Part shown: positions 3,908 to 30,559 of the stretch, piece after piece | Position numbering within the stretch: the stretch's first letter is position 1 | Layout: each line of letters opens with the position of its first letter | Assembly: GCA_022843945.1 (NCBI GenBank) | Contig: JALHMR010000002.1 | Location: 72,073-136,072 of the forward strand | DNA from: Rhodospirillaceae bacterium | GTDB taxonomy: Bacteria; Pseudomonadota; Alphaproteobacteria; CACIAM-22H2 | DNA length: 64,000 nucleotides | Direction of reading: 5' to 3' | Translations under genes and position numbers: made by a program | The notes under the pieces: model-generated | Seen by the model: only the letters and a program-made list of their open reading frames with translations | Database searches by the model: none | Told to the model about the DNA's origin: nothing

Positions 3908-5014
3908 TCAGAACGGTCCGCGGAACTGGCGCTGATAGGCCAGCACGGCGCGCTCGGGATCGGGCGTCCATTCGCCGGCCTTGGGCCTGACCATCTTGTG
4001 CGCGGCCTGCGCAATGCGGGCCGGGTTGGGATAGAACTGGTCCTCGATCGAGGGCGAGGTCGGGCAGATCGTCGGCGCGAAGCCCATGCGCTCCACCTGG
4101 AACTTGCCTTCGGGCCCGAGGGCCTCGGCGACGCGCGCCGCGATCTCGGCGCCGGCGCCGCACATCGTCCAGCCATTGTCGACGACGATCAGGCGGCGCG
4201 TCTTCTTGACCGACTTGACGATGGTGTCGGTGTCGAGCGGCGAGAGCCAGATCGGGTCGATGATCTCGGCCGAGACGCCGGCATCGGCGAGCAGCTCGCG
4301 CCCCCGCAGGCATTCGACCAGCATGTTGGAGATGCCGACCAGCGTCACGTCGTCGCCGGGCATGACCACGCGCGACTTGCCCGGCGGCAGCTCGAACTGC
4401 TCCTCCGGCACGTAGGCCTCGGTCGGGTAGAGCAGGCGATGCTCGACGAACATCACCGGATTGTCGTCGCGGATGGCCGAGAGCATGCAGCCCTTGGCGT
4501 CGTGGGCGTTGGACGGCGCCACGACCTTGAGGCCGGGGAAATGCATGAAGGTGGAGTAGAGACCCTGGCTGTGCTGCGGGCCCTGGCCCCAGGACTTGCC
4601 GATGATCGAGCGCACGACCAACGGCACCTTGATATTGCCGCCGTACATGTAGTGCGCCTTGGCCGCCATGTTGATGAGCTGGTTCATGCTCAACATGAGG
4701 AAGTCCATGCGGATATGCACATGGATCGGGCGCAGGCCGGCCATCGCGGCGCCGATCGCCGCACCGGTCATCGCGTCCTCGGCCAGCGGCGTCGTAAAGA
4801 TGCGGTCGGGGCCGAACTTCTGAAGGAGGCCGCGGGTCGAGCCCTGAAGCGCCTTGTGGTCGTCGACGTCGAGGCCCATGACGAAGACCTTGTCGTCGCG
4901 CTCCATCTCCTGCTCGACCGCCTCTTTCAACGCGTCGACATAGCGCAGCACGCGGCCGCCGGTATTGCCGGCGGCGTCGGGCGCGGGCTTGGTGGCCGTC
5001 TTAAGCGTAGACAT
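3908..5014 (-). CDS. Thiamine-diphosphate-dependent dehydrogenase E1 component, beta subunit (transketolase C-terminal-like)
   Basis: Pyrimidine-binding and C-terminal transketolase-like domains of 2-oxoacid dehydrogenase E1-beta proteins. Overlaps the E1-alpha gene by 14 bp. Confidence 0.8.
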   Translation of the reverse strand: MSTLKTATKPAPDAAGNTGGRVLRYVDALKEAVEQEMERDDKVFVMGLDVDDHKALQGSTRGLLQKFGPDRIFTTPLAEDAMTGAAIGAAMAGLRPIHVHIRMDFLMLSMNQLINMAAKAHYMYGGNIKVPLVVRSIIGKSWGQGPQHSQGLYSTFMHFPGLKVVAPSNAHDAKGCMLSAIRDDNPVMFVEHRLLYPTEAYVPEEQFELPPGKSRVVMPGDDVTLVGISNMLVECLRGRELLADAGVSAEIIDPIWLSPLDTDTIVKSVKKTRRLIVVDNGWTMCGAGAEIAARVAEALGPEGKFQVERMGFAPTICPTSPSIEDQFYPNPARIAQAAHKMVRPKAGEWTPDPERAVLAYQRQFRGPF

Positions 5015-5960
5015 GGGTGTAGAGCTCTTTGGCGGCCGGGAAGGGGCTCTTCTCGGCGAACGCGATGGCGGCGGCGACGTCCTTCTCGACCTGGGCGTCG
5101 ATGGCGGCGCGCTCGTCGGGATCGAGCATCGCCGCGACGCGCGGGATCTGGTCGTTGTCGACCCACGGCTTCAGATCGTCGGTCGAGCGATAGCCGGAAT
5201 CGTAATCGTTGGCCGGACCCACGTGTTCACGCCAACGATAAGTATGGCACTCGATGAAGATCGGACCGTACTCGCCGCGCCGCATCTTGGGCAGCGCGTC
5301 CATCATGATGTTGCGGATCTTGAAGACGTCGGCGTCGGTCACCCGGTAGGCGGGGATGCCGTAGGTCTGCACGCGCTCGCAGATCGCGTCGGGCACCGCC
5401 TGGCGGCGAGCGATCGGCGTATGGATGGCGAAGAAATTGTTCTCGAGCACGAAGACCACGGGCAGGCGCTTGAGCGCCGCGAAATTCAGGCTCTCGTGGA
5501 AGACGCCTTCTTCCGTCGCGCCGTCGCCCATGAAGCTGGCGATGACCCGGCCCTTGCCCTCGCGCTTGAGGGCGAGGGCATAGCCCAGCGCGATCGGCAC
5601 GGTCGTGCCGACCACGGCCGATGAGCCGACGACGTTGTTCTGGATGTCACAGAGATGCATGGACCCGCCCTTGCCGCGGGTGCAACCGGTGTCCTTGCCG
5701 TAGAGCTCGGCCATCAGGCCGTTGATGTCGCCGCCCTTGGCGATATACGTCGCATGACCACGATAAGTGCCGCCGGCAAGATCATCCTTGTTCAGCGCGT
5801 CGCAGACGCCGACGGCGACCGATTCCTGGCCGATCGACAGGTGGACGGGGCTCTTGATCTTGTCTTCGGGGTAGATGCGCGCGACCTCTTCTTCGAAGCG
5901 CCGGATCAGGCGGAGAGAGGCATAGACGCGGCGGATGGTCTGGGTGTCAGCTTCGGGCAT
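5001..5960 (-). CDS. Thiamine-diphosphate-dependent dehydrogenase E1 component, alpha subunit
   Basis: GDGATEEG...NN ThDP-binding motif and E1-alpha fold (pyruvate/acetoin dehydrogenase-like). First gene of a minus-strand operon running through the dehydratase and epimerase. Confidence 0.8.
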   Translation of the reverse strand: MPEADTQTIRRVYASLRLIRRFEEEVARIYPEDKIKSPVHLSIGQESVAVGVCDALNKDDLAGGTYRGHATYIAKGGDINGLMAELYGKDTGCTRGKGGSMHLCDIQNNVVGSSAVVGTTVPIALGYALALKREGKGRVIASFMGDGATEEGVFHESLNFAALKRLPVVFVLENNFFAIHTPIARRQAVPDAICERVQTYGIPAYRVTDADVFKIRNIMMDALPKMRRGEYGPIFIECHTYRWREHVGPANDYDSGYRSTDDLKPWVDNDQIPRVAAMLDPDERAAIDAQVEKDVAAAIAFAEKSPFPAAKELYTHVYA

Positions 5961-25178: not shown

Positions 25179-26045
25179 ATGGAGTATTTCCTGCTTGGCC
25201 TGGTCGGCCTGCTGATCCTGATTGCGCTGTCCGGCGTCAAGATCGTTCCCCAGTCCCATGAATACGTGGTCGAGCAGTTCGGCAAATACACGGTGACCCT
25301 GCGGGCGGGCCTGAACTTCATCGTGCCGATCCTCAACCGGGTGGCTTCCAAGGTCAGCATCCTCGAGCGCCAGCTCGAGCCCCAGGAAATCAGCGTCATC
25401 ACCAAGGACAACGTCGAGATCCACCTGACCACAGCGGTCTTCTTCCGGGTGGTGGATGCGGCAAAGTCGGTCTATCGGATCAACGACATCGACCTGGCGG
25501 TGAAGACCACGGTGACCAGCATCGTGCGCTCGACCGGCGGCCAGATGGAGTTCGACGAGGTCCAGGCCAAGCGCGACTTCATCAACGAGAAGATCAAGGA
25601 CTCGCTGTCGGAGGCCTGCGCGGTGTGGGGCATCGAGATCACCCGCACCGAGGTGCTCGACGTCTCGGTCGACGCCGCGACGCGCACGGCGATGCAGCAG
25701 CAGCTCAATGCCGAGCGCGAGCGCCGGGCCGCGGTGACCAAGGCCGAAGGCGACCGCCAGGCACAGCAGCTCCATGCCGACGCCGAGCTCTACACCGCGC
25801 AGAAGAAGGCCGAGGCGCGGCGCGTGCTGGCCGATGCCGAGGCCTACGCCACGACCCAGGTCGGCGCGGCCATCCAGTCCAACGGCCAGGCGGCCATCGA
25901 CTTCGAGATCATGAAGCAGCAGATCGCCAGCGTTTCCGAGATCGCGCGCTCGCAGAACTCGAAGCTGATCGTCATCCCGACCGATATCACCAAGACGCTG
26001 GGCAGCCTCGCCGCCCTGCTCGAAGGCCTGCGGGCAACGAAATGA
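25179..26045 (+). CDS. SPFH/band-7 (stomatin/prohibitin-like) domain protein
   Basis: N-terminal membrane anchor, then the SPFH domain (IVPQSHEYVVEQFGKY...) and a coiled-coil tail. Confidence 0.85.
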   Translation: MEYFLLGLVGLLILIALSGVKIVPQSHEYVVEQFGKYTVTLRAGLNFIVPILNRVASKVSILERQLEPQEISVITKDNVEIHLTTAVFFRVVDAAKSVYRINDIDLAVKTTVTSIVRSTGGQMEFDEVQAKRDFINEKIKDSLSEACAVWGIEITRTEVLDVSVDAATRTAMQQQLNAERERRAAVTKAEGDRQAQQLHADAELYTAQKKAEARRVLADAEAYATTQVGAAIQSNGQAAIDFEIMKQQIASVSEIARSQNSKLIVIPTDITKTLGSLAALLEGLRATK

Positions 26046-26323
26046 CCGCCGCCCTCGACCTGGTGGCGGAGTATCCGGTCCTCTTCTGGGCGGCGCTCGG
26101 CGTGCTGCTGCTGGTGGCCGAGGTGCTGCTGGCTCCCGGCTTCTTCCTGTCCTTCGCCACGGCGGCCTTCCTGGTGGCGCTGGCCACGGCGCTCGGCCTG
26201 CTGCCGGTCGACTTCCTGTGGAAGGCCTTGATCTTCGCGGTGATCGGCGTGGCCACCATCCCGCTCTTCCGCAGCCTGCTGCGCCGGTATTTCGACCGCA
26301 CGCCGGATATCAATCAATACTAG
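26042..26323 (+). CDS. NfeD-like small membrane protein partnered with SPFH
   Basis: ATGA overlap with the SPFH stop. Two hydrophobic helices in 93 aa, the typical partner of SPFH operons. No OB-fold domain, so this is a short form. Confidence 0.5.
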   Translation: MTAALDLVAEYPVLFWAALGVLLLVAEVLLAPGFFLSFATAAFLVALATALGLLPVDFLWKALIFAVIGVATIPLFRSLLRRYFDRTPDINQY

Positions 26324-26379
26324 GCCCTGCGACGTTCTCTCAATGCACGACGAGAGAGTGAGATTAATTGTGAGACGGA

Positions 26380-27228
26380 ATGACGCTGATTGTCGCTCGA
26401 AAGACTAATGACGCGACATACATTGTCGGAGACACACTTTTTACCGGTGGAAAGGAAAACCTCCGCAAGCCCGACGTTGGTCTAAAAGTTTTTGCGATTG
26501 ATGCTGAAACGATGCTTTCTTACGCCGGTGTAGCACCAGAGACGGCACATTAAATATTCGTCTCGGTTGTCAGCGAGCTAAAACAAGGCTCTGACGTCCT
26601 TACTTTGTTGGATGCCGCTCAACGCAAGCTCGGTGCGCCTGCACTTGATCTTCTAGTCGTTCGTAGAGGCCAGATCACCGTCTTTAAGAATGGTCAGGTC
26701 TCGAAAGATCTGGCCGTCGGGTGGATTGGTGACCACGCGGCGTTCGAGGCATTTCAGGAGGCGATGGAAGGACAAACTGCCGGAGCCTTCTCATTTCATG
26801 CAGCAATGAGCGCAGTTGTTCGGAATCACAAGGTGGCTACAGTTGGAGGGCATGCTGTAACAGCCCGCTCTGGGTCATCCGGGGCCAGCTATGAATGTCT
26901 GATGGCGCTAACTTCTCCTCGCTATGTTCCTAAGCCGGAAGACTGGGAAACGGTTGATTGGGCTGATGCTGCGCGCGGAGGGTATGGCTTTACAACAATC
27001 ACGCCCCCTGAAAAGGGGATTTGCGGCTGGGGAATTTTCTATTTTCAAGCATTTAGGGGCATCTATTTTTCGGTGAATTTAAGAGAGAATAAATTCGAAC
27101 GGCTGACGGCAAGCGCAAGAACTGCCGAACAGTTTTGCGGTGTTTTAGAGCCGGCGTTAGGCTATCGGCCTCTGCACTGCGGGGATCTTTTTGCCGCAAC
27201 GGGCCCCGCAACTACCCCGCTTTCCTGA
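26380..27228 (+). pseudogene. HslV/proteasome-beta-like Ntn-hydrolase gene (Anbu/BPH-like, with a roughly 130-aa C-terminal extension) interrupted by an in-frame TAA at 26551-26553; lies in a low-GC islet
   Basis: A single frame runs 26380-27228. The N-terminus MTLIVARKTNDATYIVGDTLFTGGKEN...KVFAIDAETMLSYAGVAPETAH matches the HslV pattern TTIVSVRRNGHVVIAGDGQ...[22 protein letters not shown], including Thr1, Asp17 and Lys33(+2). After the TAA the frame continues with LAVGWIGDHAAFEAF, which corresponds to the HslV GSGG segment. The track lists only the downstream 207-aa piece (26605-27228). Local GC is visibly about 50% against roughly 68% in the flanks. Confidence 0.5.
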
Positions 27229-27892
27229 ACGTCAGGTTGAAGCGGCAGCGGCCGGTCAGCGGATCGCTGCCCTCGGCCAGCTTGTCGACGCCGTGGAAGG
27301 TGAGCCGCGCCGGGCCGCCCCAGACTGCCACGTCGCCGCTGGCCAAGGGGATGCGCTTCACCTTGTCCTTGCGCGTGGCCCCGCCCCACAGGAATTTCGC
27401 CGGCAGGCCGAGCGAGACCGAGACGATGGGCTGCGTAAAGTCGCGCTCGTTGCGGTCCTGGTGGAGCGTGAGGCGCGCGCCCGGTGTGTAGCGGTTGATC
27501 AGGCAGCCATCGGGCGCGAAACCGGGAAAGCCGGCCGCTTCGGCGGCGCGTGCGGCGAGGGTGCGGAAGGACTCAGGCATCGCCGGCCAGGGCCTGCCGA
27601 TTTCGGGATCGAGAGGGTCGTAGCGATAGCCGCTGCGGTCGGTGACCCAGCCAAGCGCGCCGGCATTGGTCATGGCCACGGACATGGTGTGCCCGCCGGG
27701 CACGATCATGTGGCGGAAGGGCGAGCCGGCGGCGACACCCTGCAGATCGATCACCAGCCGCGGCGTCTCGCTCGCGGCGAAGCCGCGCAGCAGCACGGCA
27801 CCGTCGGCCAGGGTTTCGCGGTCTGGTCTTTCAAACAATTCGTCATGCCGGCGAAAGCCGGCATCCAGGGGCGTGTGCGTGGTGCTTGCCAT
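27212..27892 (-). CDS. alkB: Alpha-ketoglutarate-dependent dioxygenase AlkB (DNA/RNA alkylation repair)
   Basis: Collinear with E. coli AlkB (SPFRHMIVPGGHTMSVAMTNAGALGW, LTLHQDRNE, IVSVSLGLPAKF, RYNLTFR). HxD...H iron-binding triad. The 3' end overlaps the islet pseudogene by 17 bp, convergently. Confidence 0.85.
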   Translation of the reverse strand: MASTTHTPLDAGFRRHDELFERPDRETLADGAVLLRGFAASETPRLVIDLQGVAAGSPFRHMIVPGGHTMSVAMTNAGALGWVTDRSGYRYDPLDPEIGRPWPAMPESFRTLAARAAEAAGFPGFAPDGCLINRYTPGARLTLHQDRNERDFTQPIVSVSLGLPAKFLWGGATRKDKVKRIPLASGDVAVWGGPARLTFHGVDKLAEGSDPLTGRCRFNLTFRKAG

Positions 27893-27932
27893 GCCTCAAG
27901 ATGGATTGCCGGGTCGAGCCCGGCAATGACGA
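27840..27932. repeat. PGHD-type palindromic repeat element (TCGTCATGCCGGC...GCCGGGTCGAGCCCGGCAATGACGA), overlapping the alkB 5' end
   Basis: Hairpins CATGCCGGC-gaaa-GCCGGCATC and TTGCCGGG-tcgag-CCCGGCAA. The same motif family recurs at 37.6-37.9 kb. Typical Bradyrhizobiaceae intergenic repeat. Confidence 0.5.
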
Positions 27933-27996
27933 AGGTAGGCAAGGCGGAACCGCCGCCGGCGGCGCCGGCGGCGGTCCCTAGGGACAGGCCGTAGGG

Positions 27997-28341
27997 TCAG
28001 TTGACCTTACGAGTGTCGCCCTTGTTCGTATCGGTCTTGGCGCCGTCCTTCTTCACGCCGTCGGCTTTCACCGCCGGCGCCGTGCCGGTGGTGGTGCCCG
28101 GCGTGCCGGCGGCGGCCGGCGCCTTCGGGGGGACCTGCGCCTGCTGCTTGCTGTGGTCGATGGTCTGCGAAGATTTGCCCTTCGCCTTATCGGCCTTGTC
28201 CTTCTCGGTCTTGGCGGCGTCGGCCGGCGCGGCCTTGGCGGCCGGAGCCGGGGTGGCGGGAGTCGCCGGGATGGCCGTCTGCGCCATCGCCGGGGCGGCG
28301 AGCAGCAGGGCCAGGGCGGCGGCAGTCAAAGTCGTACGCAT
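27997..28341 (-). CDS. Small secreted Pro/Thr- and Lys/Ala-rich protein, paralog A (114 aa)
   Basis: Signal peptide (MRTTLTAAALALLLAAPAMA), a PATPATPAPAAKAAP stretch, the EKDKADKAK repeat, and a C-terminal ...TNKGDTRKVN. Start at the second Met (28341), which has a GAGGA RBS. Confidence 0.6.
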   Translation of the reverse strand: MRTTLTAAALALLLAAPAMAQTAIPATPATPAPAAKAAPADAAKTEKDKADKAKGKSSQTIDHSKQQAQVPPKAPAAAGTPGTTTGTAPAVKADGVKKDGAKTDTNKGDTRKVN

Positions 28342-28495
28342 GGGGTATGTCCTCATCGGTTGGGGAAGCCTTCAGGGGTTGTCCCTGCCATCCCACAACG
28401 CCACCCCGGACCCGCCTATTCGCGGAGAATTTTGCAGCCAAGGCTGGAATAAGCCCGGCGGGCAAAACGTGCGCGTGCCCCCGCGGACCAGCCGC

Positions 28496-28530
28496 CGAAA
28501 CGAAACCGCCGCCGGGGTCACCGGCGGCGG
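28496..28530 (-). terminator. Intrinsic terminator downstream of paralog B
   Basis: ACCGCCGCCGG-ggtca-CCGGCGGCGGCT hairpin followed on the minus strand by TTTCGTTTC. The same CCGCCGCCGG stem recurs after paralogs A and C. Confidence 0.45.
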
Positions 28531-28551
28531 CTCAAGCGTCGGTGGCGACGT

Positions 28552-28884
28552 TCAGTTCGTCTTGCGGGTGTTGTTCTGGTCCCGGACGTCGTTCGCGCGG
28601 TCCGGGCCGCGCGTTGCGCCCCCCTTGTTCGCGCGTTCGTTCGCCTTGTCGCCGGGGACGGTGGCCTGCTGCTTGGCCTTGTCGGCCTTCGCTTTATCGG
28701 CCTTCTGCTTGTTGGCCTTGTCCTTCTCGGCCTGGCTGACGGTCGCCGGGGCTTTGCCGGCGGCCGGCGGCGCGCTGCCCACCGGGGCCGGCGTGACGGG
28801 CGTCGGGCCCGGATTGGCCTGCTGGGCCATGGCCGGAGTGATAAGGGCGAACGCCAGGGTGGCGGCAACGAGAGTTTTACGCAT
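28552..28884 (-). CDS. Small secreted Pro/Thr- and Lys/Ala-rich protein, paralog B (110 aa)
   Basis: Signal peptide (MRKTLVAATLAFALITPAMA), a PGPTPVTPAPVGSAPP stretch, KADKAKADKAK, and a C-terminal ERANKGGATRGPDRANDVRDQNNTRKTN. GAGGAG RBS. Confidence 0.6.
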   Translation of the reverse strand: MRKTLVAATLAFALITPAMAQQANPGPTPVTPAPVGSAPPAAGKAPATVSQAEKDKANKQKADKAKADKAKQQATVPGDKANERANKGGATRGPDRANDVRDQNNTRKTN

Positions 28885-29062
28885 GGGAGCTCCTCGGGGA
28901 TCGTGGGGGAGATGAAGACGGATCGAGTTCGACTGGCTCGTGTCGCCCCCTATAACGCAGCCCGCCCGCTGGCTGCTCCGGGAACATTGGAGACTGCCGG
29001 CGCAAATAAGGAAAAGGGCGGGGAACTATTGCGCGCCGCAGCGGCGCCTCGCTGCTGGCCAG

Positions 29063-29803
29063 CTACCGCGCGTCGTGGAAGATGACGCCCAGGGTGAAGC
29101 GCCGGCCGGTGCGCACCACGCTCACGCCATGCCGCATGGCCACCCGGTAGGTGCCGTGCGTGCCCGCCACCGGCCGCTCGTTGACCGCGAAGATCACGGC
29201 TTCGCCGCGCGCCAGCCTCACCACCGCGGCGCGCGATTGCATCCGCGGCCGCTGTTCGGTGAGCACGAATTCGCCGCCGGTGAAATCCGCTTCGGGCTCG
29301 CTCAGCAGGACAGTGGCCTGCAGCGGAAAGACCAGGTCGCCGTAGAGATCGCGATGCAGGCAGTTGTAGTCGCCGGCCTCGTATTTCAGCAGCAGCGGGG
29401 TGGGGCGTTTCTGCCCGGCGGCATGGCAGGCCGCCAGGTAGCGCTTGAGATCGTCTGGAAACTTTGCGTCGCGTTTCAGCGCCCGGTTCCAGGCCTTGGC
29501 GATCGGTGCCAGCCTTGGATAGAGCGCCGCCCGGAGGTCCTGAACCACCTCGGGCAGCGGATAGGCGAAATACTGGTACTCGCCGCGCCCGAAACCGTGG
29601 CGCGCCATGACCACCTTGCTGCGGAAGGCGGTCGCGTCGTCGTAGGCAGCGATCAGTGCCGCGCATTCTTCCGGGCTCAGCAGCGGTCCGGTCGTGGCGT
29701 AGCCGTCGCTGTCAAGCGCGGCCGCGAGCTGCGGCCAGTCCAGCGCCGCGAGGCGATCGTCGATCGTCGCGCGGGCGGGCTTGCGAAATTGTGTCACGGT
29801 CAT
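29063..29803 (-). CDS. 2OG-Fe(II) oxygenase, prolyl-4-hydroxylase-like, cytoplasmic
   Basis: HxD...H iron triad (LHRDLYGD ... RVAMRHG) and a 2OG-binding Arg in an overall P4H-like fold. Start at Met 29803 (MTVTQF). No signal peptide. Confidence 0.7.
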   Translation of the reverse strand: MTVTQFRKPARATIDDRLAALDWPQLAAALDSDGYATTGPLLSPEECAALIAAYDDATAFRSKVVMARHGFGRGEYQYFAYPLPEVVQDLRAALYPRLAPIAKAWNRALKRDAKFPDDLKRYLAACHAAGQKRPTPLLLKYEAGDYNCLHRDLYGDLVFPLQATVLLSEPEADFTGGEFVLTEQRPRMQSRAAVVRLARGEAVIFAVNERPVAGTHGTYRVAMRHGVSVVRTGRRFTLGVIFHDAR

Positions 29804-29879
29804 GGGCACAATCTGGGACAACCGGACCGCCGCCGCCACCCGCTTCTTGCGCCCCAAAACAAAACCGCCGCCGGACATG

Positions 29880-29915
29880 TCCGGCGGCGGCGTGTTTGCG
29901 ACGCGCTATCGTGCC
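29880..29915 (-). terminator. Intrinsic terminator downstream of paralog C (possibly bidirectional)
   Basis: CCGCCGCCGGACA-TGTCCGGCGGCGG hairpin followed on the minus strand by TTTTGTTTTGGGG. Confidence 0.45.
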
Positions 29916-29919
29916 AGCG

Positions 29920-30186
29920 TCAGTTGGTCTTGCGCTGGTTGTTCATCTCCTTGACCTGGCCGGCGCGATCTTCGCCGCGCGTGGCGCCGCCCTTGTTGGC
30001 GCGCTCGTTGTCCTTGGCGGCCTTCGCGTTCTTGGCCTTTTCGGCCTTGGCCTTGTCAGCCTTCGCCTTGTCGGCCTGGGCCTTCTGCGCATTGCCGGTG
30101 GCCGGCGCGGGCGTGGGGGTCTGCTGGGCCAGGGCCGGCGTGGCCAGGATCAGCGCAAAGGCAGCGAGGACAGGGATCAGACGCAT
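29920..30186 (-). CDS. Small secreted Pro/Thr- and Lys/Ala-rich protein, paralog C (88 aa)
   Basis: Signal peptide (MRLIPVLAAFALILATPALA), a TPTPAPATG stretch, DKAKADKAKAEKAK, and a C-terminal ERANKGGATRGEDRAGQVKEMNNQRKTN. GGGAGA RBS. The track's longer N-terminus is read-through. Confidence 0.6.
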   Translation of the reverse strand: MRLIPVLAAFALILATPALAQQTPTPAPATGNAQKAQADKAKADKAKAEKAKNAKAAKDNERANKGGATRGEDRAGQVKEMNNQRKTN

Positions 30187-30331
30187 CGGATTCTCCCAAA
30201 AGTGACAGCCGCCCTCGAATCTGGGTGTCGGGCCGGTGCGGATCAAGCCCGGAGTACCGCGCCCCATCCTTGCCTTCCCGCCGCCGGAGGCGCACGCTGG
30301 GCGCCTTCCGTTCAGCCTCAGGAGTTCTCCG

Positions 30332-30559
30332 ATGGCGATGGATATGACCCAGCTCGAAGCCGCGCTTTCGCTCCTGCTCACCGAAATGGACGGCGAGATC
30401 GAGGACCGCCACGCGGTCTATCAGCGGCTTGAGCACATCCTCGGCCAGATGCGGGCCACCGGGCAACCGTTGCCCGACGATCTCGTGCGCATGGAGCGTC
30501 AGCTGGCGGCCGGGTTTGCCGCGGACGCGGCGGCTTCGCCGCGCCTGACCGAGCTCTAG
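30332..30559 (+). CDS. Small hypothetical acidic protein (75 aa)
   Basis: ATG 30332 is preceded by an AGGAG RBS. Host-like codon usage; no recognised family. Confidence 0.35.
   Translation: MAMDMTQLEAALSLLLTEMDGEIEDRHAVYQRLEHILGQMRATGQPLPDDLVRMERQLAAGFAADAAASPRLTEL

Follow-up and report, generated by a model that had tools for sequence, protein, structure and literature searches.

Organisation of the locus

The window, by which we mean the whole 64,000-nucleotide stretch of DNA that was analysed, contains three small genes (A, B and C), two 2OG-Fe(II) oxygenase genes and three G+C-rich hairpins, all on the minus strand:

27212..27892, minus strand: alkB, DNA oxidative demethylase (NCBIfam PRK15401, E 8.2e-99; Pfam 2OG-FeII_Oxy_2, E 1.6e-55)
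27947..27977, minus strand: hairpin after A, same stem as the two below, 3-nt loop, no T-run (-37.4 kcal/mol, z -3.8)
27997..28341, minus strand: gene A, ORF for a 114-aa precursor, divergent paralog
28492..28533, minus strand: hairpin/terminator of B, 10-bp stem, loop GUGACC, interrupted tail TTTCGTTTC (-41.1 kcal/mol, z -4.2)
28552..28884, minus strand: gene B, ORF for a 110-aa precursor
29063..29803, minus strand: 2OG-Fe(II) oxygenase gene, PF09859 (Oxygenase-NA), 246 aa from the ATG at 29803
29854..29891, minus strand: intrinsic terminator of C, 12-bp G+C stem and 4-nt loop, then TTTTGTTTT (-41 kcal/mol, z -4.3)
29920..30186, minus strand: gene C, ORF for an 88-aa precursor
30218..30246, minus strand: candidate sigma-70-like promoter of C, TTGATC-N17-CAGATT, read from the sequence

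The initial annotation had described A, B and C as three paralogous small exported proteins, and the ORFs, the predicted signal peptides and the homology found among them bear this out. GC3 of the three genes was 0.88-0.89 and was equally high in the matched antisense frame. GC3 was thus unable to separate the frames, and synonymous and non-synonymous changes were therefore counted instead. Among gene A orthologs, the synonymous/non-synonymous counts were 26/13 in the sense frame vs 13/22 or worse in the antisense frames, and among gene C orthologs they were 20/16 in the sense frame vs 17/21 or worse. Judged from these counts, the A and C proteins are under purifying selection. The same counts bear on the possibility that the small ORFs arose by chance in G+C-rich DNA and that the plus-strand ORFs at 28001-28915 and 28940-30205 are the true genes. 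The high antisense GC3 would fit this, as would the absence of the exact A, B and C sequences from a collection of 15 billion proteins that does include the oxygenase and AlkB encoded on that contig. However, the best ratio was that of the sense frame, the signal peptides and the motif described below are kept in 83 homologs, and an 88-aa gene was called by JGI at the position of C in the identical contig. Furthermore, the plus-strand ORFs lie antisense to the confirmed oxygenase gene and run across the terminators. We consider chance ORFs exceedingly unlikely; the absence of the products from so large a collection illustrates how readily such genes are missed in G+C-rich genomes.

The small proteins and their family

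Each of the three proteins begins with a 20-residue Sec-type signal peptide, as read from the sequence, and in A, B, C and most homologs this peptide consists of MR/K, a hydrophobic stretch of 12-15 residues and an AxA end directly before Q. The mature chains of A, B and C are 68-94 aa long, have a pI of about 10 and a net charge of +7 to +8, and contain neither Cys nor aromatic residues. In the gene C product, the 20-aa signal peptide is followed by QQTPTPAPATG, (A/E)DKAK repeats and the C-terminal motif ERANKGGATRGEDRAGQVKEMNNQRKTN. The gene A product carries PATPATPAP after its signal peptide, then a few KADKAK repeats and a terminal TRKVN, and the gene B product combines an A-like N-terminal half with a C-like C-terminal motif. 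The repeats have a 15-nt period, corresponding to five residues (Lys/Ala/Asp), with 4.1 copies in B, 4.5 in C and 1.9 in A. An AF2 model of C consisted of a single helix spanning residues 34-87, with an overall pLDDT of 64 and values of 86-89 for the last 20 residues. CopC, cytochrome c2 and NosL were the only PDB matches of the small proteins, and these aligned through their signal peptides. The label 'RcnB' that JGI attached to P0045 was rejected, having no support in the sequence.

Homology between B and C is clear (BLASTP 1e-13), and the two have in common the sequence ERANKGGATRGxDRAxxVxxxNNxRKTN. The match between A and B (BLASTP 1e-8) was limited to the signal peptide and the P/T tract, apart from the terminal TRKVN. 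A C-terminus shared by all three proteins had been claimed; this stands for B and C, which share the ERANKGGATRG core, but A shares the terminal TRKVN and lacks the NKGG..RG..RA core. The motif [RH][SA]NKGGxxRGxxR[AS]xxV was found in B as NKGGATRGPDRANDV and in C as NKGGATRGEDRAGQV and was absent from A. The family HMM scored C at 98 bits and B at 71 bits; A reached only 25 bits, to which nothing but its signal peptide and repeats contributed. Orthologs of C were 49-83% identical to it.

A word-index search returned no matches for B and 6 close homologs only for C, and a profile search was needed to recover the family. This yielded 33 representatives at 50% identity from 1.84 billion proteins, and 83 matches, nearly all metagenomic, were found in a set of 5.8 billion. 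A scan of genome contigs with patterns from a narrow alignment hit a single MAG and is uninformative on the spread of the broad family. Three features define the family, namely a signal peptide, a charged linker that varies and the C-terminal motif [RH]SNKGGxxRGxxRAxxVxxMN. Of these, the C-terminal motif alone is conserved across the family; the P/T tract is not. A minority of the homologs, phage ones included, have no signal peptide, and the same motif occurs in signal-less, very basic proteins of phage head-gene modules. Searches of Pfam, NCBIfam and PDB with single sequences and with a 35-member alignment returned signal-peptide or low-complexity noise only. By these comparisons, B and C are members of an uncharacterised family for which there is no database model, in agreement with the initial annotation, which had not recognised the family.

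With its small size, high hydrophilicity, Gly and Lys residues and lack of a fold, the A/B/C family resembles the KGG-repeat stress proteins and hydrophilins, and the tripeptide KGG is central to its motif. KGG-repeat stress proteins (YciG/GsiB, Pfam KGG) are cytoplasmic and carry a repeated motif, whereas in the present family there is one motif, at the C-terminus, and a signal peptide is present. None of the 35 family members matched Pfam KGG (hmmscan, E<=1).

Hairpins and transcription of the small genes

The pattern CCGCCGCCGG-N(5-6)-CCGGCGGCGG occurred three times in the 64 kb vs 0 expected (none in 100 shuffles). Each copy lies 20-30 nt 3' of A, B or C and has the same 10-bp stem, and the predicted folds ranged from -37 to -41 kcal/mol with z-scores of -3.8 to -4.3. 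A terminator scan called only the hairpin of C and not those of B and A; the hairpin of B aligns with the terminator of C, tail included. The hairpin of A is positioned between A and alkB. In the related loci L003 and L031, its orthologs have a TTTTT tail, and in L003 the pairing is kept by a two-sided compensatory change (G-C to A-T). The terminator of C has an invariant stem and a variable loop in L002, L003, L028, L029 and L031. That the terminator forms part of the gene unit, as had been proposed from the duplication, is supported, in that the same stem lies 3' of all C orthologs (five other loci) and 3' of a distant family member, L016, in a different genomic context. Rfam had no match anywhere in the 64-kb window.

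A GGGAGA Shine-Dalgarno sequence directly precedes the ATG of C. Equivalents of the candidate promoter are found upstream of C orthologs (TTGAAC...TAGATT in L003, TTGATC...TAGATT in L028); a strict consensus scan reported no promoter, the candidate upstream of C included. An EcfG general-stress promoter (GGAAC-N16-17-CGTT) was considered and dropped as unproven, since the regions upstream of 14 family genes did not match it consistently. GCGAAT-N17-CGTT is conserved upstream of A orthologs, and L016 has GGAAT-N16-CGTT.

The hairpins argue against one transcript across the cluster, and A, B and C are most likely monocistronic, individually transcribed genes, as far as sequence signals can tell. 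Since the hairpin of A has no U-tract here, A and alkB may be co-transcribed. The hairpins also raise the question of whether each small gene with its hairpin serves in cis, as an insulator or attenuator that allows low read-through to the oxygenase gene and alkB, the peptides themselves being of little importance. A hairpin stands immediately upstream of both oxygenase genes, and the weak-tailed hairpin of A in this window would permit read-through. Against this, the proteins are under purifying selection, conservation of the C-terminal motif is evident in the protein sequence, and the family is conserved in many contexts that have no downstream oxygenase. A role mainly in cis is highly improbable.

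The oxygenase and AlkB

The product of the gene between B and C had been described as P4H-like. Its best match was instead PF09859, over model positions 1-172 of 172 (Pfam; E 2.3e-85, 284.8 bits), and the P4H-type model 2OG-FeII_Oxy_3 gave 24.5 bits, below the cutoff of 27 (E 5e-5). The HxD...H...R residues, read from the translation, correspond to LHRDL, MRHGV and RRFTLGV, which by analogy only would serve as Fe(II)/2OG ligands. The true start is probably the ATG at 29803, because the first ATG, at 29878, which is the annotated one, falls within the loop of the terminator of C; the oxygenase gene call in L003 begins at the ATG equivalent to 29803. Automated annotation has thus begun the oxygenase gene within the loop of a terminator. 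The stretch between the terminator of C and the oxygenase start contains a conserved GCGCAAGAA box.

The alkB gene lies 1.2 kb downstream of the oxygenase gene on the same strand, and its product passed the NCBIfam equivalog cutoff (329.4 bits vs 267, PRK15401). The PF09859 and PRK15401 matches uphold the statement that two 2OG oxygenases are adjacent here and that one of them is AlkB. The alkB gene is of the E. coli type and is ordinary except for its neighbours. In a literature search under PF09859, DUF2086 and Oxygenase-NA, we found no relevant paper or biochemical characterisation. The enzyme resembles the PF09859 proteins of Ada-type clusters (predicted nucleic-acid oxygenases, formerly a DUF) in its full-model match and in having an alkylation-repair gene nearby, as its orthologs do. 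The locus differs from other PF09859 loci in that one or two small secreted-protein genes stand between the oxygenase gene and alkB and a third lies upstream of the oxygenase gene. No ada or ogt gene was present within the 64-kb window. From family assignment and neighbourhood, the PF09859 enzyme and AlkB are most likely a pair of cytoplasmic enzymes that repair alkylation damage, as is usual in Ada-type clusters.

Gene order in other genomes

Among PF09859 orthologs elsewhere (n=10 replicons, 53-67% identity), 7/10 directly adjoin ada, ogt, alkA or alkB. The initial annotation had itself held that a lack of co-occurrence of the small proteins with P4H-like genes in other genomes would speak against its proposal, and such a lack was observed. 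A family member within 4 kb was found at 0/10 of these ortholog loci, and PF09859 or alkB was found near 0/20 family loci outside one alphaproteobacterial clade, although many of these 20 contigs are short, eight of them less than 3 kb, and the absence carries less weight for it. Within the clade, C lies directly upstream of the oxygenase gene in 6/6 distinct loci, and the order C, terminator, oxygenase, A, alkB is kept in every locus long enough. A follows the oxygenase gene in the four loci that reach that far, and alkB follows A in three (the window, L003 and L031). Among the syntenic relatives, B is present in this window only; L002, L003 and L031, each of which has an A ortholog, pass directly from the oxygenase gene to A. 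In L028, the adjacency of C and the oxygenase gene is kept despite identities of 49% for C and 72% for the oxygenase, and this persistence could reflect selection for the arrangement. On the loci compared, the linkage of oxygenase and small genes is real within one clade only, where it is indistinguishable from inherited gene order.

These comparisons weigh on the proposal that the oxygenase hydroxylates proteins, acting on Pro or Lys of the small proteins before their Sec export, and that the genes form an enzyme-substrate module. The order of C followed by the oxygenase gene in all six clade loci, the diverged pair included, is compatible with such a module, as are the Pro- and Lys-rich tracts and the weak, sub-threshold 2OG-FeII_Oxy_3 match of the PF09859 enzyme. 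Like prolyl 4-hydroxylases, the oxygenase belongs to the 2OG-Fe(II) double-stranded beta-helix superfamily, and A, B and C have Pro-rich tracts. Unlike prolyl 4-hydroxylases that act on Pro-rich or collagen-like substrates, however, it fails the P4H-type Pfam cutoff and its orthologs accompany DNA-repair genes, lying in ada/ogt/alkA/alkB clusters and never beside a family member in the 10 loci. The Pro tracts of A, B and C are short and are not conserved in the family, no such oxygenase is near the 20 family members outside the clade, and between C and the oxygenase gene there is a strong intrinsic terminator. In addition, the enzyme has no signal peptide, whereas its supposed substrates are exported. 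Neither the family assignment nor the genome comparison supports a P4H-like enzyme that hydroxylates the Pro-rich tracts before export, and we regard a hydroxylase-substrate module as very unlikely.

Alternatively, the small proteins could be functionally linked to the alkylation response and yet not serve as substrates; they might be co-induced, lysine-rich exported protectants against electrophiles, for example, or scavengers of them. Their many nucleophilic lysines fit scavenging, each oxygenase gene has a small gene ahead of it on its own strand in all clade loci of sufficient length, and the conserved box upstream of the oxygenase start is also in keeping with such a link. However, the linkage is restricted to a single clade, family members are found in about 20 further contexts that are unrelated, and the 64-kb window has no ada gene. 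A part in the alkylation response is, on this evidence, quite unlikely.

A model for A, B and C

The explanation that we regard as probable is that A, B and C are separately transcribed genes for exported polycationic envelope proteins, and that their adjacency to the oxygenase gene reflects inherited order and not an enzyme-substrate relation. Each gene, with its own Shine-Dalgarno sequence, upstream region and 3' G+C hairpin, would be transcribed separately, and each product would be exported by Sec and cleaved between AxA and Q to give a mature chain of 68-94 aa. This chain would comprise a short P/T/A linker and a segment of five-residue Lys/Ala/Asp repeats, predicted to form a single long helix, to which B and C add the conserved C-terminal motif. 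The result would be an extended, polycationic protein without enzymatic activity, located in the periplasm or at the cell surface, whose lysine-rich helix and Arg/Gly motif would bind anionic polymers of the envelope or matrix. A, B and C are most likely helical or disordered envelope proteins. We infer polyanion binding from the net charge, the lack of a fold and the occurrence of the motif in signal-less basic proteins of phage head modules. In one alphaproteobacterial clade, the small genes would have become positioned upstream of both oxygenase genes (C, terminator, oxygenase, A, alkB), and in the lineage of the window a third copy, B, would have been placed between the oxygenase gene and A. 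No family member has an experimental or annotated function, which we count against this explanation, as we do the low overall confidence of the AF2 model.

What is new here is a hitherto undescribed family of small, exported and polycationic proteins, which share a conserved motif of 20 residues and for which no database model exists. As it stands, the finding is of modest importance, and it corrects a tempting enzyme-substrate story that has no support. Should the linkage to PF09859 and AlkB within this clade prove functional, envelope proteins would be connected to the adaptive response to alkylation, which would be new. A broader proposal, which we consider improbable, is that SNKGGxxRGxxRAxxV is an unrecognised short polyanion-binding module common to Sec-exported envelope proteins and signal-less basic proteins of phage head modules, and that the exported versions in this clade were recruited to the alkylation-damage response beside PF09859 and AlkB, as protectants or as targets of the oxygenase.

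Histone-H1-like bacterial proteins of the AlgP/Hc1 type are rich in Lys, Ala and Pro, with low-complexity repeats of the AKxAK type and a high positive charge. A, B and C, strongly positive and with AKxAK-type repeats, can be set beside them by description, but their canonical Sec signal peptides lead us to expect them outside the cytoplasm. Those phage proteins of the motif family that have no signal peptide resemble DNA-associated basic proteins.

Gene order and coding status of the three small genes

Three small genes (A, B and C), a 2OG-Fe(II) oxygenase gene and alkB, which encodes a DNA oxidative demethylase, follow one another on the minus strand of the window (G+C content 66.5%), and two long plus-strand ORFs overlap the small genes and the oxygenase gene.

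Features of the locus (window coordinates)
30186-29920, minus strand: C, first in the 5' to 3' order, followed by a hairpin
29878-29063, minus strand: 2OG oxygenase ORF, after the C hairpin
28884-28552, minus strand: B, after the oxygenase, followed by a hairpin
28341-27997, minus strand: A, after the B hairpin, followed by its own hairpin
27892-27212, minus strand: alkB, last, after the A hairpin
28001-28915, plus strand: long antisense shadow ORF (304 aa) spanning A, B and the terminators
28940-30205, plus strand: long antisense shadow ORF (421 aa) spanning the oxygenase and C

GC3 was 0.88-0.89 in all three small ORFs and was the same in the antisense frame with common third codon positions. 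Because of this equality and the overlapping plus-strand ORFs, orthologs were compared codon by codon in the sense and antisense frames, with the oxygenase as a control. Ortholog differences fell mostly at third codon positions, and the sense frame gave the highest synonymous/non-synonymous ratio (20/16 for C, 26/13 for A and 62/45 for the oxygenase control), all antisense frames being poorer. On this codon-level evidence, the small ORFs A, B and C are real genes. A collection of 15 billion proteins contains AlkB and the oxygenase from this contig but no exact match to the product of any of the three small genes, which gene callers may have missed or misplaced.

Each small gene is followed by a related hairpin

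The pattern CCGCCGCCGG-N(5-6)-CCGGCGGCGG occurred three times in 64 kb, once directly 3' of each small gene, and in none of 100 shuffles. The RNA folds were predicted at -37 to -41 kcal/mol (z-scores -3.8 to -4.3). The C hairpin is a textbook terminator of 12 pairs followed by TTTTGTTTT, and the tail of the B hairpin is TTTCGTTTC; the A hairpin has no T-run in the window and TTTTT in its orthologs on L003 and L031, two contigs from close relatives. In the L003 copy, pairing was preserved by G-C to A-T changes on both arms. When the DNA of the gene and its 3' flank was aligned for the three small genes, two orthologs of C and L016, a more distant member with different genomic surroundings, the stem was invariant, the loops were variable and the T-rich tail was homologous, and the same stem was found 3' of all other C orthologs fetched. 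We therefore regard the terminator as an ancient component of the gene unit, in agreement with the initial annotation; a common terminator is the expected outcome for duplicated gene units. Another perfect inverted repeat, of 8 bp (TTGCCGGG-CTCGA-CCCGGCAA), lies at 27893-27945 between the A hairpin and the alkB start and is not conserved in L003.

A, B and C and their protein family

The first 20 residues of all three proteins form a signal peptide, in which MR or MK is followed by a hydrophobic stretch of 12-15 residues and an AxA cleavage site before Q. The mature chains have 68-94 aa, a pI of 9.8-10.1, a net charge of +7 to +8, a GRAVY of -0.9 to -1.7 and no Cys, Trp, Tyr or Phe. Five-residue (15-nt) repeats were detected by Tandem Repeats Finder in 4.5 copies in C, 4.1 in B and 1.9 in A. 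B and C are homologs (BLASTP 1e-13) with ERANKGGATRGxDRAxxVxxxNNxRKTN in common, and their description as paralogs with a common C-terminus stands. The similarity of A to B (1e-8) lies in the signal peptide and P/T tract; the core motif has been lost from A, which ends in TRKVN.

Pfam, NCBIfam and PDB returned only signal-peptide or low-complexity noise for this family, which we defined by the C-terminal motif SNKGGxxRGxxRAxxV. When 1.84 billion representatives were searched exhaustively with a profile, 33 proteins were recovered (E<=1e-3), and a profile search of a 5.8-billion set recovered 83, nearly all unannotated and from metagenomes or MAGs. In members, a signal peptide leads into a charged, variable linker (K/A/D/E, sometimes G/H-rich), which is followed by the motif [RH]SNKGGxxRGxxR[AS]xxVxxMN. 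The N, G, G, R and V of the motif never vary, and one subgroup extends it as GLDRADEVAGEHGxQGRxNA; the P/T tract is not conserved beyond the close clade. AlphaFold2 with the family alignment predicted a single long helix (residues 34-87) and no globular fold, with a pLDDT of 64 overall and 86-89 across the last 20 residues. The family is new as a described entity, without a Pfam or NCBIfam model; in kind, these are ordinary small secreted low-complexity proteins.

On the unrelated metagenome contig L041, a secreted K/E/P-rich protein without the motif (614-958) precedes a member that bears it (979-1497), a tandem reminiscent of motif-less A beside B. Phage contigs from IMG/VR also encode small, extremely basic proteins that lack a signal peptide and carry the same motif (SNKGGxxRGxxRAxQV): one (L040/L046, 3486-3737) lies two genes upstream of a major head protein (phrog_1328), and the other (L045, 4920-5246) comes after a 663-aa portal-sized ORF. 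Because of their charge, their lack of a fold and this motif in very basic phage structural-module proteins, we tentatively suggest that A, B and C might bind anionic envelope or matrix polymers non-enzymatically.

The oxygenase and its genomic company

The oxygenase, initially called P4H-like, matched Pfam PF09859 (Oxygenase-NA) instead, with an E value of 2.3e-85; a P4H identity was rejected, the P4H-type model 2OG-FeII_Oxy_3 scoring 24.5 bits against a cutoff of 27. No solved structure was found for any oxygenase homolog. The identity of alkB at 27212-27892 was confirmed by NCBIfam PRK15401 (329 bits vs a cutoff of 267). Within the oxygenase ORF, the first ATG (29878) falls in the loop of the C terminator, and the JGI call is this longest form (271 aa). 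The L003 gene call (238 aa) starts at the equivalent of ATG 29803, which is probably the conserved start; from there the oxygenase has 246 aa, and a cluster mate has 264 aa.

Ten oxygenase orthologs (53-67% identity, on plasmids and chromids) were sampled from Azospirillum, Roseateles, Pseudosulfitobacter, Thalassospira, Rhizobium, Paracoccus, Novosphingobium, Burkholderia, Cupriavidus and Streptomyces. The ortholog was directly adjoined, often with overlap, by ada, ogt, alkA or alkB in seven loci, among them Novosphingobium, with alkB immediately 3'. Neighbours of this kind are typical of an alkylation-damage response gene and would explain why alkB lies near the oxygenase in the window. The oxygenase and AlkB would form an alkylation-repair pair.

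The association with the small genes is limited to one lineage

Six loci of alphaproteobacterial close relatives were compared: the window (identical to L001 and L027), L003, L002/L030, L031, L029 and L028. The order C, terminator, oxygenase was found in 6/6, and in L028 the linkage was kept although C is 49% and the oxygenase 72% identical. A follows the oxygenase in all four loci reaching that far (window, L002, L003 and L031), and in the window, L003 and L031 the next gene after A is alkB; contig L002 stops within A. Among these relatives B occurs in the window only. There it makes up, together with its own terminator and upstream region, a segment of ~600 bp that separates the stop codon of the oxygenase from the conserved GGGCTTATTCC at the head of the A upstream region.

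Outside the clade, neither PF09859 nor alkB was found near the family gene at any of 20 distinct loci (7 from exact-protein look-ups with 6-kb flanks and 13 from a metagenome scan, 8 of these being contigs of <3 kb), where the neighbours were unrelated (Rieske/AsmA, two-component systems, HTTM, GntR/PhyH, YchF, RlmN). Likewise, no family member lay within 4 kb of the oxygenase ortholog in the 10 loci sampled. The association is therefore limited to one lineage, and within the clade it is, as far as gene order tells, indistinguishable from inherited gene order. It had been proposed that the oxygenase hydroxylates the Pro-rich tracts of the small proteins before Sec export. Clade-internal synteny and the sub-threshold P4H match favour this model, but the mutual absence at the 20 family and 10 ortholog loci and the repair genes adjoining seven orthologs argue against it, and we consider it very improbable. 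Instead, A, B and C would be autonomous monocistronic units whose products are exported, polycationic and extended and belong to an undescribed family, and their interleaving with repair genes would reflect lineage-specific synteny, plus the extra paralog B in this genome; we are confident in the genomic and architectural part of this reading.

A single distant family locus, L011, has a nearby 2OG-superfamily gene (4354-5160), a PhyH-family member in a divergent GntR-regulated operon beside the protein P0075. The PhyH family differs from PF09859, and this proximity is probably coincidental.

Regulatory signals and neighbouring DNA

A candidate C promoter is sigma-70-like (TTGATC-N17-CAGATT) and is accompanied by a GGGAGA Shine-Dalgarno, with equivalents in L003 and L028. 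A orthologs have a conserved upstream block that includes GCGAAT-N17-CGTT, and no EcfG-type promoter was consistent across the family. Between the C terminator and the oxygenase start, all clade members carry a conserved box, GCGCAAGAA(G/C)CGGGTGG, ~29 nt upstream of a CAGAGT/CAGATT element. We take this box to resemble the Ada box of E. coli (AAAGCGCAAGA); a homolog of ada was not found within the 64-kb window.

Conserved-box region
Window: 29815-29860
L002: 6262-6310
L003: 1228-1285
L028: 5300-5355
L031: 5290-5345

Divergent from C, a 107-aa ORF (30236-30559, plus strand) without a Pfam or NCBIfam match is conserved in L003 (445-768, minus strand); the JGI call in L001 has 75 aa. Just downstream of alkB, a patch at 26200-27200 has a G+C content of 51-55% vs ~68% and contains two ORFs (26380-26553 and 26605-27228; GC3 0.49) without Pfam or NCBIfam matches. 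In L003, alkB abuts a PNPOx-family gene and the patch is missing, which together with the low G+C suggests a foreign insertion. The same L003 stretch also lacks the Band7/NfeD genes (25179-26323), whose G+C is normal.
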